DNA of 64,000 nt from Leptonemataceae bacterium (GCA_965227295.1 OZ245742.1:3584001-3648000); one strand, 5' to 3'; positions 7,394 to 54,251 are shown, counted from the stretch's first letter. Program-made: numbers and translations. The notes: generated from the letters alone by a model not told the origin.

Positions 7394-8191
7394 TTACTTC
7401 ACCTCGTTCAATCCCCAATCATAGGACAGGTACTCCAGTTCCACGTTCCCCCGGTTCGCGCGGAGGTCTGTTTGCACGTCCGGGGCGAGGTACGGCAGGA
7501 TCACATCGATGATCGCGGACTCCGGCGCCCCGGGATCCTTTACAAAATCTTCGCGGTACCAATCGAGAATCTTTGATACATACAGCGTACGGGATGTCGC
7601 GTCGTAGCGAGAGTAGCGCGGGTCACGCAGCCAGGCTTGCATTTGATCGTCGAGCTGTGCATCGAGGCGCGGGCCCTCGTAGGCTTCATGGCGGAGCGGC
7701 GGGCAACCGACGGACGCGCAATTGATGGCGCCGTGATGGCGAAAGTCCTGGTAGACCGGCCGCAGGATTTCGTGTTCCACATCGTCCAGGGTGTAGCGTT
7801 GGTCGTGAATGGGAAACTCCCAGGTCCGCCAGATCGTGCGGCCGAAAACGACGCCGAGGTAGAGGCTGCCGAACAAATGCAGCTCGTTGATGCTGTCCAC
7901 GCGTTCGTTGTCGGCGATGAGCTTGAGGGTATGGGCGTTGTAGACGTTCAACCAGAAGGCGATGCGATCGTTGCCGTCCAGGGACGTCGGGTCCGTGGAG
8001 GCGAGTTGGGCGATGTAGTGTTCCAGGCGCGGATCCTCCTGGAGCGCGCCGTAGTCTTTCACAAAGCCATGCGCGAGGTGATCCTGCAGAAGTTCGGTAA
8101 ACAGGGCGTGCCGATCGCCGATCGCGGAAGCAGGAGTAGCTGCGAGTGCGAGGAAGGCTCCGGCGAGGACGACGCGGATCAGGTGGGGCAT
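7394..8191 (-). CDS. DUF547 domain protein
   Basis: AFWLNVYNA, LDDVEHEILR, NCASVGCPPL, SKILDWY and YDWGLN motifs. Confidence 0.9.
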   Translation of the reverse strand: MPHLIRVVLAGAFLALAATPASAIGDRHALFTELLQDHLAHGFVKDYGALQEDPRLEHYIAQLASTDPTSLDGNDRIAFWLNVYNAHTLKLIADNERVDSINELHLFGSLYLGVVFGRTIWRTWEFPIHDQRYTLDDVEHEILRPVYQDFRHHGAINCASVGCPPLRHEAYEGPRLDAQLDDQMQAWLRDPRYSRYDATSRTLYVSKILDWYREDFVKDPGAPESAIIDVILPYLAPDVQTDLRANRGNVELEYLSYDWGLNEVK

Positions 8192-8298
8192 GGGAATCTC
8201 CGCTGTTTTAGTAGGTTACTCACCGTGACGGTTACGCCGGGACCGAAATTTCCGCTGGATTTTCTCCGGTTTCTGGTTATCCTGAGTGTATGGCCTAC

Positions 8299-8517
8299 AT
8301 GGCAGTCGGTTCCAGGCAAATCCTCTTCTCGGACACCGCGGCCCCCGCCGCGTCCCGGGACGATATCCGCGAAGTCGCCAACGTCAGCGACAACACCCAG
8401 GCAGAAGCTTCTACACCCGCGGCCACCCCGCAGCCGGAAAACCAACCGGCCACGCCGCCGCCTGCCGCCCCGCCTGCCGCGGGCGATCCCGGTTTCAATC
8501 TCGACGTGTCCGCGTAA
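8299..8517 (+). CDS. Small Ala/Pro-rich protein with GxNLDVxA C-terminus
   Basis: Low-complexity linker; the C-terminus resembles YjfB-type small motility-associated proteins. Confidence 0.5.
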   Translation: MAVGSRQILFSDTAAPAASRDDIREVANVSDNTQAEASTPAATPQPENQPATPPPAAPPAAGDPGFNLDVSA

Positions 8518-8520
8518 ACC

Positions 8521-9385
8521 CGGAAACCCGTTACGAACCGCGGCTTTTGAACTACGGGAAAGTTTTTGTTTGTTCAAGCACGCCCCGAATCGTGGAATCT
8601 GGATTAAGACTTTTATGGGTACAACTGGTTCCAGCTCACGAGCGGAGGTCAGGCAGGGGAACATGGTAAGGCGGACCGGAACGGCGTCTTCGCCGCAAGA
8701 ATCGCTATGGTAGCTGAGTCGCACAACCAGCGTCCGGGTCGAACGCAGCATACTTCACAAAACGAAACTCCACAACTCCCGCTCAGCTGTAGCCAAAAAA
8801 ATGGCATTTCACGGTTGCGCAACTTACCTTGTGTGTCTCACGGCAACGTGAGCGAACCGCGACTCTTGAACTCCGGGTAAAGCTCGGGTGATTCGTAAAC
8901 GCCCCGAATCTTGGTGTAAGTTGAGGCCAGTCTGGGTTAAGACTTGTATGGGTACAACTGGTTCCAGCTCACGAGCGGAGGTTATGCCGGGGAACGTGGT
9001 AAGGCGGACCGAAACGGCGTCTTCGCCGTAAGAAACGCTACGATATTCCGAACCGCACAACCAGCGTCCGGGTCGAGGCGGACAATCTCAGCAAAACGAA
9101 TCACCACAACTCCCGCTTCGCTGTAGCCAAATCAACCACCCCTTCACGATTGCGCAACTTACCTTCTGTGTCTCACGGTAAACGCCACGAAACACAGCTC
9201 TTGAACTACCGGAAACGTTTTATTCGTTTGCACACGCCCCCGAATCGTGGTGTAAGTAGCGGCCAACGTAAATTAAGCCTTTTATGGGTACGGCTGGTTC
9301 CAGCTGACGCGCGGAGGTTATGCCGGGGAACGTGGTAAGGCGGACCGGAACGGCGTCTTCGCCGCAAGAAACGCAATGGTAGCCG
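8521..9385. repeat. Non-coding tandem array of diverged ~320-335 bp units (A 8521-8840, B 8841-9175, C 9176-9385 partial)
   Basis: Blocks TTGAACT, ACGCCCC, TATGGGTAC, CTGGTTCCAGCT, TGGTAAGGCGGACCG and AACGGCGTCTTCGCCG recur in all three copies; CGCACAACCAGCGTCCGGGTCGA and TTGCGCAACTTACCTT recur in A and B. Confidence 0.9.
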
Positions 9386-9402
9386 CATCGTATAAGTGAG
9401 AT

Positions 9403-10242
9403 TCAGAACTTCAGTGTGATCTCGTAACCCTGATGCTTGCGCATGTTGATGACGCGGTTGCCTTCGAAGATCAGATACTGCCCTTTGATGCCGAGCAATA
9501 GCCCGCTGATCTCCGATTCTTTATCGAAGCCGACGGACTTTACTTTTTCGGGATAGGACTTCACGGGATACTGGATCGCCGTCTTGCGGCCGCCCGCAAC
9601 GGCGTACTGTTTCAGATCTGCCGGTAGCAGTTCGATGATTTTAGCTTTCGCGGCGAGGAGGTCGCGATCGGCGCGTTCGTCCTTCAGCATTTTGCGCCAG
9701 TCCGTGCGGTCGGTGAGATGTTTCTTGAGCGCGACCTCGATGAGCCCGGCCGTGTAACGATTCGGTGTCTTCGCGAGCGGCACGGCCGCGTGGGCCCCCT
9801 GATCGATCCAGCGCGTGGGAACCTGGCTGCCGCGGGTGATGCCGACCTTTACATCGCTCGAAAGCGCCAGGTAGACGACGTGTTCGACCAGGCAATGTTT
9901 CTTCGACCACTCCATGTCCCGGGATTCTCCTGCCTGGGCCCGGCAGAGCTCCGGACGCAGGACGCAGTCGCTCGTTTCCGGCGCCCTCTGGAAGCATGGA
10001 TAGCAGTAACCCTGCGCAAAGGATTTGTTCGTTGCCCGGCCGCAACGAATGCAGTAGATCTTCCCACTGTAACTGAGGATGAGCGGCTTCTTCGAACCGA
10101 CGGCCTTGTTCATTTCGAACTCCGCACTCTTGCGAACTTTGCCCACCCCCGCCGGTTGTTCCAGGGCCAGGGTGTAGCGGACCGGGTCCTTCGCGTTCTT
10201 GCGTTCGGTTTTCATTTTTCGGATGGTACCGGTGATTTGCAT
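9403..10242 (-). CDS. DUF2797 domain protein (Zn-binding)
   Basis: CIRCG..T.KSFAQGYCYPCF, HVVYLA, KVGITR, RWIDQGA and GIKGQYL motifs. Confidence 0.9.
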   Translation of the reverse strand: MQITGTIRKMKTERKNAKDPVRYTLALEQPAGVGKVRKSAEFEMNKAVGSKKPLILSYSGKIYCIRCGRATNKSFAQGYCYPCFQRAPETSDCVLRPELCRAQAGESRDMEWSKKHCLVEHVVYLALSSDVKVGITRGSQVPTRWIDQGAHAAVPLAKTPNRYTAGLIEVALKKHLTDRTDWRKMLKDERADRDLLAAKAKIIELLPADLKQYAVAGGRKTAIQYPVKSYPEKVKSVGFDKESEISGLLLGIKGQYLIFEGNRVINMRKHQGYEITLKF

Positions 10243-10330
10243 GATCGTCCTCGCATTCACGGGTGGGAACATCCGCGAATGCGAGGACAGAAGCCCGAAG
10301 CGCGCGGAGCGTCCAGAGTTTCTCAGGACG

Positions 10331-35018: not shown

Positions 35019-35186
35019 GATGAATGACTGAAACGAACTGTGAATCTGTCAACACCGTAGCAAAGCCGGGGCATCGCCCGATCCAGAGTCGCACAATGAG
35101 CGTCCGGGCCGAAGAGAGGCATTCTCAGCAAAACGACATGCCGCAACTCCCGCCAGCCGTAGCCAGAAAAACGGCGCACCCGACCA

Positions 35187-49217: not shown

Positions 49218-49289
49218 CGGGATGTAGCGCAGGGGTAGCGCATCTGCTTTGGGAGCAGAGGGTCGTTGGTTCGAATCCAATCATCCCGA
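49218..49289 (+). tRNA. tRNA-Pro(TGG)
   Basis: Cloverleaf; TCTGC-tt TGG ga-GCAGA anticodon arm; TTCGAAT. Confidence 0.95.
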
Positions 49290-49293
49290 CAGA

Positions 49294-49367
49294 GCGCCAG
49301 TAGCTCAGTTGGATAGAGCAGCTGCCTTCTAAGCAGCTGGTCGGGGGTTCGAATCCTCCCTGGCGCG
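49294..49367 (+). tRNA. tRNA-Arg(TCT)
   Basis: GCTGC-ct TCT aa-GCAGC; acceptor stem GCGCCAG/CTGGCGC. Confidence 0.95.
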
Positions 49368-49410
49368 CAGGCAGTCGCTTTGGGACTGCCGAACCAGAAC
49401 AGATAAACAC

Positions 49411-49483
49411 GGCGGGTGTAGCTCAGTGGTAGAGCGCCAGATTGTGGCTCTGGATGTCGGGGGTTCAATTCCCCTCACTCGCC
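49411..49483 (+). tRNA. tRNA-His(GTG)
   Basis: G-1 present; CCAGA-tt GTG gc-TCTGG. Confidence 0.95.
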
Positions 49484-49486
49484 CAT

Positions 49487-49602
49487 CGTTTTTGCCCCTC
49501 CCTCCCGCGCAGCCCTGTGCGCGGCGCCCATCCATGGGCTTAGCGCCCAGGGGGGCGGACATCCTGTCCGCCAATCAGCGCAGAAGGGAGGGGCAAAAAG
49601 CG
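49487..49602. repeat. Composite REP-like palindrome abutting tRNA-His
   Basis: Outer arms TTTTTGCCCCTCCCT / AGGGAGGGGCAAAAA enclose hairpins GCCCATCCATGGGC and GGCGGACATCCTGTCCGCC. Confidence 0.75.
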
Positions 49603-49633
49603 AAGGCGTGGTTTCGTTCGGGACCGGCCTGGC

Positions 49634-50290
49634 TTATCTCGGCCCCGGGAAATAGAACGGCGATTCGAACGGATTGTACGAATACTCCTGATCCGTGTGG
49701 AACCGGAACTCCGGTACGCTCAGGTTTACGCCGGCCACGCTGATCCGCGGGCGCACCGATAGATTCTCCACGTCACCGATGGGAACTCCCAGGAGCCAGA
49801 TCTGGAACTCCGTGGCCGTCTCGATTTCTACATAGTCGGGCAACGATTCGAATTCGTTGACGCTGTAGTACTCCGCAATATCGACATGGCCCGTTCCGGC
49901 ATCGTAGTCATACTGTGTCAGACCGGTGGGAGACAGAGTCGTCGCCTCGTGGCGAAACTGGAAGCTGTCCTGCTCAATGCGCAACGGGGCGGCTCCCGGC
50001 GGGAATTCCAGGCGCCAATGCATGTATACATCCCGGCTCGCGACGAAGTTGTTGTCCGTTGGCCAGAGCGGCAGCAGGCACGGACCGATGAATGCCTTCT
50101 GCTGACCGGAAACGGCCCAATAGTGCAGCGTGATCGGACCGGCCGGGGAAGCCGCGACATAGCGGGCACACGGGACCTCGCAACCGCGGGAGTCGCGGTA
50201 TTGATACTCCGGCGCCAGGTAGTAGCGCGTGTCGATGGTCGAGCAGTGTACGATAAGCAGGGCAATCGGCAGTGTGACGATCCAACGCAT
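49634..50290 (-). CDS. Hypothetical lipoprotein
   Basis: IVHC lipobox-like; lies antisense between two tRNA clusters. Confidence 0.65.
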   Translation of the reverse strand: MRWIVTLPIALLIVHCSTIDTRYYLAPEYQYRDSRGCEVPCARYVAASPAGPITLHYWAVSGQQKAFIGPCLLPLWPTDNNFVASRDVYMHWRLEFPPGAAPLRIEQDSFQFRHEATTLSPTGLTQYDYDAGTGHVDIAEYYSVNEFESLPDYVEIETATEFQIWLLGVPIGDVENLSVRPRISVAGVNLSVPEFRFHTDQEYSYNPFESPFYFPGPR

Positions 50291-50389
50291 GGACGAATTT
50301 TACTTTACCGGGGCGGGGCCGGGAATTCCTTTTCTGTTTGACTACCGGATGGGGCTGAAAAACCTTGCTGTCTCTATCCGGTTCGTCAC

Positions 50390-50471
<82 letters not shown>

Positions 50472-50475
50472 CAAC

Positions 50476-50547
<72 letters not shown>

Positions 50548-50578
50548 CAGTAATCTCGTATCAAGAGAGAACGTTCCG

Positions 50579-54053: not shown

Positions 54054-54085
54054 GTTATTCGGGCCGTATTCGATGCACGATTCTT

Positions 54086-54206
54086 CGCGTCAGCGATTGG
54101 AAGGGTCGCGCGTAGCGCGAGTCCGGAGCGAAGCGCAGGACCGAAGGCGAAGCCGTCGCCCTGGAAAGCGCGGTCGGAAGGCGCCTGGGCCTGGCGCCTT
54201 CCGAGA
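54086..54206. repeat. REP-like palindromic element plus hairpin between convergent clpX and tatC
   Basis: CGCGTCAGCGATTGGAAGGG...CCCTGGAAAGCGCG with internal GCGTAGC/GCGAAGC hairpins, then TCGGAAGGCGCC-N-GGCGCCTTCCGA. Confidence 0.6.
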
Positions 54207-54251
54207 CGCCCAATGAAATCGCATCTTGTCTTGACTAACTTCTGTAAGCGT

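Follow-up and report, generated by a model that had tools for sequence, protein, structure and literature searches.

To our knowledge, the extragenic repeats reported from bacteria so far are mostly short, 20-150 bp; the units of MIRUs, for example, measure 40-100 bp. REPs, of 20-40 bp, alternate in orientation where they form BIMEs, according to the available parts of their descriptions (PMC2817692, PMC3733652, PMC3333891, PMC3116915, PMC8049555). In NIMEs, dRS3 repeats (ATTCCC-N8-GGGAAT) are separated by RS elements, an arrangement given in the accessible portion of the source as 20-bp repeats that bound elements of 50-150 bp, which fall into more than 100 families (PMC1797815). The species-specific non-coding tandem repeats of Bacillus have constant sizes of 52 nt or 20-21 nt and, in the excerpted text, their authors propose protein polymerisation on DNA or transcription as their role (PMC8161180).

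The locus considered here lies in a 64,000-nt stretch of DNA (the window) from a Leptonemataceae bacterium (GCA_965227295.1 OZ245742.1:3584001-3648000; genome G000), and was compared primarily with two congeneric genomes, G001 and G002. As with MIRUs, as they are presented in PMC3635867, a single repeat family is dispersed between the genes of one chromosome, at many loci and in short arrays of head-to-tail copies; unlike MIRUs, its unit is 329 nt, three to eight times longer, with a strong block structure and mosaic alleles. With the Bacillus repeats it shares a non-coding, species-specific character, a constant unit length and a few short conserved motifs per repeat, and it differs from them in the 329-nt unit and in the conservation of the sequence itself across more than 100 loci; the association with stop-codon position and with breaks in synteny is a feature of the 329-nt family that the consulted part of that report does not describe for the Bacillus repeats (PMC8161180). 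Within the openly accessible literature, no description of the 329-nt family was found, nor any report on intergenic tandem repeats in Leptospirales.

The window array and its family

The gap between two convergent genes holds 2.6 head-to-tail units of 319, 335 and 205 nt (window positions 8534-9392; Table 1), in keeping with the ~2.6 copies described in an initial annotation of the sequence. Tandem Repeats Finder reports a period of 336 with 2.3 copies, 81% matches and a score of 1008 over positions 8603-9385, and a repeat search of the array returned three in-register copies at spacings of 319-336 nt. Identical blocks do alternate with variable segments at the places that the annotation named, and the ~15-nt block said to be lacking from the first copy corresponds to an absence of 14 nt. 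The array begins 17 nt downstream from the stop codon of the upstream ORF, which has ~70% nucleotide identity to the versions in both congeners, and unit C ends 11 nt short of the stop codon of the converging DUF2797 gene. Within unit A, the core module is the sole part with relatives in the two congeneric genomes. The isolated fragment of the family elsewhere in the window lies within a 2.2-kb segment that is absent from the congeners.

Table 1. Positions of the features discussed (window coordinates unless a genome is named)
Feature	Position	Strand	Remarks
Unit A	8534-8846	+	nhmmer profile 1-324, 313 nt; without a 14-nt block near profile 63-76
Unit B	8853-9186	+	full length, profile 1-329
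Unit C	9188-9392	+	from profile search; cut at profile position 204
Genus-wide core module in unit A	8699-8812	+	profile ~180-290
Genus-wide core module in unit B	9032-9147	+	
Upstream flanking ORF	7637-8517	+	Pfam: no family; conserved in both congeners
Downstream converging gene, DUF2797	9403-10272	-	E 2.3e-91
Isolated fragment of the 329-nt family	35084-35171	+	profile 195-281
Signalling gene of the congeners at the window locus	8517-9403 versus L075:330-3062, L076:548-3205		
Head-to-head pairs of core modules	G001 C2:5059846-5060086; G002 C9:1499038-1499304		
Second GC-rich palindromic repeat	G000 C1 near 777790, 1419599, 1823707, 2020573, 5361016, 5633551		
Reverse-transcriptase genes of G000	C1: 40883, 765390, 4099046, 2021332, 2368575, 32821, 3743265, 4553832, 5028782, 3069061		

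On neither strand of window positions 8000-10000 is there an Rfam covariance-model match at E<=1, self-cleaving ribozymes, group II introns and OLE/GOLLD-type large RNAs included, and a scan of the array gave no promoter-like site (0.6 expected) and one terminator-like site (1.8 expected). The array has no similarity at E<=1e-5 to 72,556 plasmid and 50,697 phage records, in a search for which the variable segments, at 10-19 nt, are too short to be detected. No transposase, reverse transcriptase or integrase is encoded by the seven neighbouring ORFs that were tested. The window also has a different short repeat of ~95-130 nt at positions 54082-54213, with at least 20 copies of 80-90% identity scattered over the G000 chromosome.

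When used to search its own genome (5.94 Mb, a single contig), unit B has 142 BLAST matches, and the multi-copy family that the annotation proposed to look for in this way does exist. A profile built from 59 near-full copies gave 325 hits that form 117 single-strand loci, and the array is one of these rather than a unique feature of the chromosome. The loci total 75,204 bp, equal to 228.6 units or ~1.3% of the chromosome; 88 of the 117 are at least 280 bp long, the largest is 2,372 bp and they range from a fragment up to 7 units with ragged ends. All hits within one array share one strand. Each unit is a string of ~15 conserved blocks in constant order, 328-329 nt in length and so not a multiple of three, and is a composite of a ~100-nt core module, a 185-nt part and an optional 75-nt GC-rich hairpin, designated P. 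Four sites have recurrent insertions, located after profile positions 115, 193, 224 and 256, and the sole internal inverted repeat, of 17 nt, pairs positions 92-108 with 264-280. Array starts cluster at profile positions ~1, 35 and 165-195, and ends at ~50, 185-225 and 329; the ends are ragged and the flanking sequences unconserved. In short-read assemblies of two runs from one study, the contigs that hold the window locus break inside the repeat, and their depth piles up across the family.

Profile matches on both strands of the same DNA, at G000 C1:776292-776590 and 1378564-1378848, hint that one half of the unit is weakly similar to the other in inverted orientation. The first half is not, however, recognizable as a diverged inverted core module, since the best reverse-strand profile hit (E 0.094) is no better than those obtained with shuffled sequences.

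Conserved blocks, shared alleles and the P hairpin

Aligned over their full length, 96 units have a mean pairwise identity of 79%, yet 110 of 328 columns have two or fewer variants. The number of variants per column has a variance-to-mean ratio of 18, and not the uniform spread of substitutions that the annotation had named as the sign of neutral decay. The blockwise conservation is real and far from neutral decay. The most conserved stretches include an invariant 17-nt block at profile positions 156-172. Rare variants number 1.83 per conserved column and 1.56 per polymorphic column, values to be read with the knowledge that saturated columns leave few rare alleles. A period of three does not dominate the conservation profile (power 123, versus 696 for the top peak, at 27 nt) and, with a length of 328-329 nt, this marks the unit as non-coding. 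The view that no reading frame is conserved is upheld, and all ORFs within the window array are of 78 aa or less.

The variable segments had been thought to vary freely. They do not: 3,828 of the 4,382 non-consensus calls are alleles common to at least five units, and private substitutions average 1.6 per unit. At a representative 5-nt segment there are 10 haplotypes in all, four of which account for 82 of the 96 units. Linkage (r2) between common polymorphisms is 0.275 for sites 1-3 nt apart, 0.038 for those 9-15 nt apart and 0.013 for those more than 60 nt apart, against a null of 0.010. Each variable block thus has a few discrete alleles that are shared genome-wide, neighbouring blocks assort almost independently with linkage gone within 10-15 nt, and because linkage approaches the null over so short a distance the units form a combinatorial mosaic rather than a tree of subfamilies. 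Array neighbours are 85% identical, versus 79% for random pairs, and the closest relative is an array mate for 28 of 67 units. As the annotation had concluded, this is not a CRISPR array: the unit is 329 nt with ~15 conserved blocks, and the variable segments are shared alleles and not unique spacers.

Mutual information over all pairs of columns gave only local pairs in the top ranks and no long-range Watson-Crick covariation, and an all-against-all scan for helices found none with more than two covarying pairs. Three candidate long-range pairings (98-108/264-274, 138-155/243-260 and 185-191/267-273) were rejected because their joint base counts fit independence; at the 104/268 pair, for example, there are 44 GC, 30 AC, 16 GT and 6 AT combinations. 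RNAalifold predicts -1.4 kcal/mol for the core module, with none of four pairs covarying, and -19.3 kcal/mol for the first half, with two-sided change of any kind in 3 of 35 pairs. This weak consensus fold of the first half has many G-U pairs and would exist on the + strand only. The conserved blocks are primary-sequence motifs without supporting covariation. Selection on a structure or on binding sites had been read from the blockwise pattern: the departure from neutral decay, evident in 110 of 328 columns, stands, but a fold of the unit is not supported, P excepted.

P is an optional GC-rich palindrome of ~75 nt; its core gave 57 hits, 44 of them no more than 100 nt away from an array. It always shares the strand of the array and occupies a single site in the unit, which directly follows the invariant 17-nt block (profile positions 156-172), and many arrays terminate with it. 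In the stem, 42 distinct copies have two-sided changes in 9 of 18 pairs, as exemplified by a pair with 10 GC, 9 TA, 8 TG, 6 CG and 2 AC combinations, and the hairpin is maintained by compensatory changes. The excess of T-G wobbles over A-C mismatches points to folding of the array strand, and is a hint of a single-stranded, strand-specific form that a purely double-stranded-DNA reading would not explain. As DNA, the stability of P is modest (z-scores of -1.2 to -2.6). There is no GTAG/CGTC tag visible at its base, and no canonical T-tract terminator in P or in the array tested. A second, unrelated GC-rich palindromic repeat, with a core like CCCCCGCGCTACGCGCGGGG followed by a conserved tail, occurs at six or more loci (Table 1) and is not associated with the 329-nt arrays.

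Gene ends, relatives and gene order

Based on the crude gene calls made for this analysis, 55 of the 117 loci lie between convergent, 9 between divergent and 53 between tandem genes, with convergent contexts in large excess over divergent (binomial p 3.5e-9). Between tandem genes, 24 arrays are co-oriented and 29 anti-oriented with the genes, so there is no orientation bias. The distance from array to stop codon is mostly 0-30 nt, and arrays fill the entire gap between convergent genes. With an origin near 1.15 Mb and a terminus near 4.05 Mb, 71 of the 117 arrays are oriented with replication, a weak bias (p 0.026). The array strand has 34-35% C and 11-19% G over positions 201-340 (~140 nt), and the opposite strand is C-rich over positions 61-200. 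This composition would be compatible with Rho-utilisation-like zones in both directions and is proof of nothing.

A BLAST search with the unit gave marginal hits in the two congeners and none in 38 further relatives. The congener hits correspond to a module of ~65-100 nt, profile 187-290, in which the conserved blocks are the same and keep their order; two of the copies carry inserted hairpins, at a site that varies. In both congeners these core modules are present as single copies or as head-to-head inverted pairs with a spacer of ~50 nt. Across 151 genomes of the order, a sequence-only model of the core (R1) matched the genus only, with at least 25 matches in G000, 24 in G002 and 16 in G001 (up to 25 candidates being scored per genome), plus one marginal hit (E 0.0099), and a model of the first 185 nt (R2) matched only G000. 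In these 151 genomes, then, the 185-nt part and the tandem form were found in G000 alone, and because the core is genus-wide while the first half is not, the 329-nt tandem unit is a species-level elaboration of a dispersed module common to the genus.

In G001 and G002, the genes on either side of the window array are likewise collinear, and where G000 has the array they have a gene for a ~900-aa 7TMR-DISM/SpoIIE(PP2C)/TPR signalling protein. G000 is without this gene at the locus and has, elsewhere, only paralogs of 43% identity or less. As the congeners hold a gene there, the window locus cannot be taken as a clean empty site. One clean filled-versus-empty comparison is provided by G000 5,159,377-5,159,941, where the array begins 0-3 nt past a stop codon, the gene has final codons unlike those of the congeners and no target duplication is visible. 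At 2.98-3.00 Mb, two genes are 18.4 kb apart in G000, versus 1.1-2.0 kb in the congeners; the extra DNA opens at an array that abuts the stop codon of the first gene, further arrays lie inside it and, downstream of the second gene (Z), there is an array where both congeners have an inverted module pair. At 2.30-2.32 Mb, a 5.8-kb insert specific to G000 ends at an array and another array, the third, occupies a segment that was replaced, while no array interrupts the collinear backbone. At 45-65 kb, genes that are single-copy in G000 stand one by one between arrays, and their homologs lie scattered in the congeners. The window itself, taken as a 60-kb control, is collinear with both congeners over 36 anchors, with indels of more than 800 nt at 6 of 35 junctions, and both of its family hits fall in two of those. 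The window also has five tRNA genes (Pro, Arg, His, Leu, Gly) at positions 49218-50548, with 92-98% identity in the congeners.

In total, for five regions of which four were chosen for array density, discontinuities with the congeners coincide with 13 of 14 family loci and with 4 of 33 array-free junctions (Fisher p 2e-7). The BLAST comparison, at ~70% identity, misses diverged genes, and an absent match is weaker evidence here than a measured gap. In the regions compared, arrays border, or lie within, DNA that is inserted, replaced or relocated in G000. The association has no direction of its own, in that arrays as a cause and arrays tolerated at such sites are indistinguishable by it.

Origin, rival explanations and significance

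The closest parallel is with NIMEs. As these are presented in the consulted part of their description (PMC1797815), both are non-coding arrays in which short conserved sequences alternate with variable segments that fall into families; both are mosaic, dynamic and genus-restricted, are tied to variation in neighbouring genes, are proposed substrates for recombination and, at certain loci, keep arrays in syntenic positions between related species, as is seen here downstream of gene Z. The dRS3 motif has, however, no occurrence in G000 and, in contrast to NIMEs as outlined there, the 329-nt family has a fixed unit of ~15 blocks with strict head-to-tail periodicity and no associated phage or recombinase was found for it (PMC1797815). 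With REPs, BIMEs and REPINs, in the portions of the accounts cited above, it shares abundance at gene 3′ ends, composite mosaic clusters and a GC-rich palindrome, P, in many units, and with REPINs the head-to-head pairing of core modules in the congeners, though with no RAYT. It departs from REPs and BIMEs in the 329-nt unit and in the common direction of all units in an array, with P on the strand of the array, and from all three in that the palindrome is optional, present in ~44 units and with no GTAG/CGTC tag seen, and in that no Y1/RAYT transposase is encoded in the three genomes (PF01797, 0 matches in G000, G001 and G002; the control genomes were matched). The best-supported description is of a long tandem variant of the REP/BIME/NIME kind that is a member of none of them, since unit size, orientation pattern, RAYT and the dRS3 motif all fail as grounds for membership.

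No partner enzyme is apparent. Among 432 genes that flank arrays no gene family is enriched (lowest uncorrected p 0.012). G000 has 10 RVT_1 reverse-transcriptase genes, several of them identical copies, and both congeners have none; all are inside ordinary group II introns, flanked to left and right by Rfam intron domains (RF00029, RF02001, RF02005). The statement in the initial annotation that transposases, reverse transcriptases and integrases are absent nearby is correct for the seven neighbouring ORFs, yet these 10 intron-encoded enzymes are present elsewhere in the genome; of the co-occurring enzymes that it proposed to look for, no RAYT was found in the three genomes. A MITE was rejected on the lack of terminal inverted repeats, the ragged array ends and the lack of a target-site duplication at the one clean insertion, features that also leave no transposition mechanism evident. 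Dispersal over 117 loci and the lack of enriched neighbours argue against an array of integron cassettes.

On balance, we consider it probable that the window array is one locus of a genus-restricted, non-coding extragenic family whose copies, lodged behind stop codons, are maintained as non-autonomous repeat DNA that recombines, rather than as arrayed RNA genes. The family is likely selfish DNA rather than RNA genes, and the non-autonomous element amplified in tandem, one of two candidates originally put forward, fits the data. The conserved blocks would then be needed for propagation or recognition, a DNA-binding or recombination protein being the simplest candidate for what recognises them. 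Ectopic recombination or gene conversion would occur often among the units, and crossovers or short repair patches within the conserved blocks would thereby produce the mosaic; such short tracts could come, for instance, from heteroduplexes that undergo short-patch repair. The location behind gene ends may be where insertion is tolerated, and the dispersed arrays could act as portable homology that promotes the insertion, loss and relocation of neighbouring genes. A bolder extension, which we regard as tentative and rather unlikely, is of a chromosome-wide system for shuffling genes, NIME-like but outside Neisseria and with the arrays as its scaffold, in which a putative block-recognising protein drives very short-patch exchange that generates the mosaic and the gene insertions, deletions and relocations, and so shapes gene order in this lineage.

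Near-invariance in ~96 copies and conservation of the core in three species could equally mean that every copy has a host function. A role at gene ends, in two-way termination or protein binding, has to be taken seriously as a rival, given blocks that hardly vary among all copies and are shared between species, even if we judge it unlikely overall. Each copy would be under selection as a cis-element of the host, either a two-way (Rho-dependent) transcription stop or insulator or a platform to which an abundant DNA- or RNA-binding protein attaches. This would account for arrays that abut stop codons and fill convergent gaps in either orientation relative to the genes, for a zone of C over G that transcription meets from either direction, for core blocks conserved in three species and for conserved blocks without secondary structure, as protein-recognised motifs would be; without a T-tract terminator in the tested array or in P, another mode of termination would be needed there. 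Orthologous gene ends in the congeners lack the element, however, only one species was found to have the tandem form and the unit's first half, copy number varies from a fragment to 7 units per locus with ragged ends, and composition skew alone is weak evidence for Rho sites.

An array of structured non-coding RNAs with variable guide-like segments, the other original candidate, is improbable, with no Rfam match, no covariation outside P, no promoter-like site, no orientation bias relative to genes and no partner enzyme enriched nearby. Strong blockwise conservation would be expected of such RNAs, as would the P hairpin, with its variable presence, fixed site, compensatory changes and G-T wobbles on the array strand, and the weak G-U-rich fold of the first half on the + strand only, but the variable segments are a few shared alleles and not unique spacers, and the proposed comparison of these segments with phage sequences gave no match to the array in 50,697 phage records, nor in the plasmids, with segments of 10-19 nt too short for detection. 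It is more improbable still that the family is an RNA-mediated satellite, with units copied by a reverse transcriptase, possibly by rolling-circle synthesis on circular RNA, and concatemers then inserted. G000 does have 10 RVT_1 genes versus none in the congeners that lack tandem units, array starts and ends at varied unit phases resemble pieces of a concatemer, and template switching could yield mosaics; yet the reverse transcriptases belong to ordinary group II introns, the unit matches neither a self-cleaving ribozyme nor any other Rfam family, array boundaries fall at a few preferred phases at either side and are not truncated on one side only, and the correlation comes from one genome. 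Neutral decay of a local tandem duplication, or of a coding repeat, is hardly tenable. The head-to-tail layout and some near-identical neighbours, such as the three P-bearing units at 5,667,330-5,668,227, are as duplication would leave them, but the 117 loci are dispersed and neighbours are often not closest relatives, per-column variation is over-dispersed 18-fold, and a period-3 signal and a length divisible by three are both lacking at 328-329 nt.

The family is set apart by a strictly tandem 329-nt unit that fills more than 100 gene-end gaps, by its combinatorial mosaic and by the addition of a species-specific part to a genus-wide core. If the arrays cause the differences in gene content and order, they would constitute a simple, enzyme-light route to genome plasticity; if they mark the ends of transcription, they would be a new kind of terminator or insulator. 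Either way, these repeats disrupt assemblies made from short reads and are a feature of this lineage that lacks annotation.
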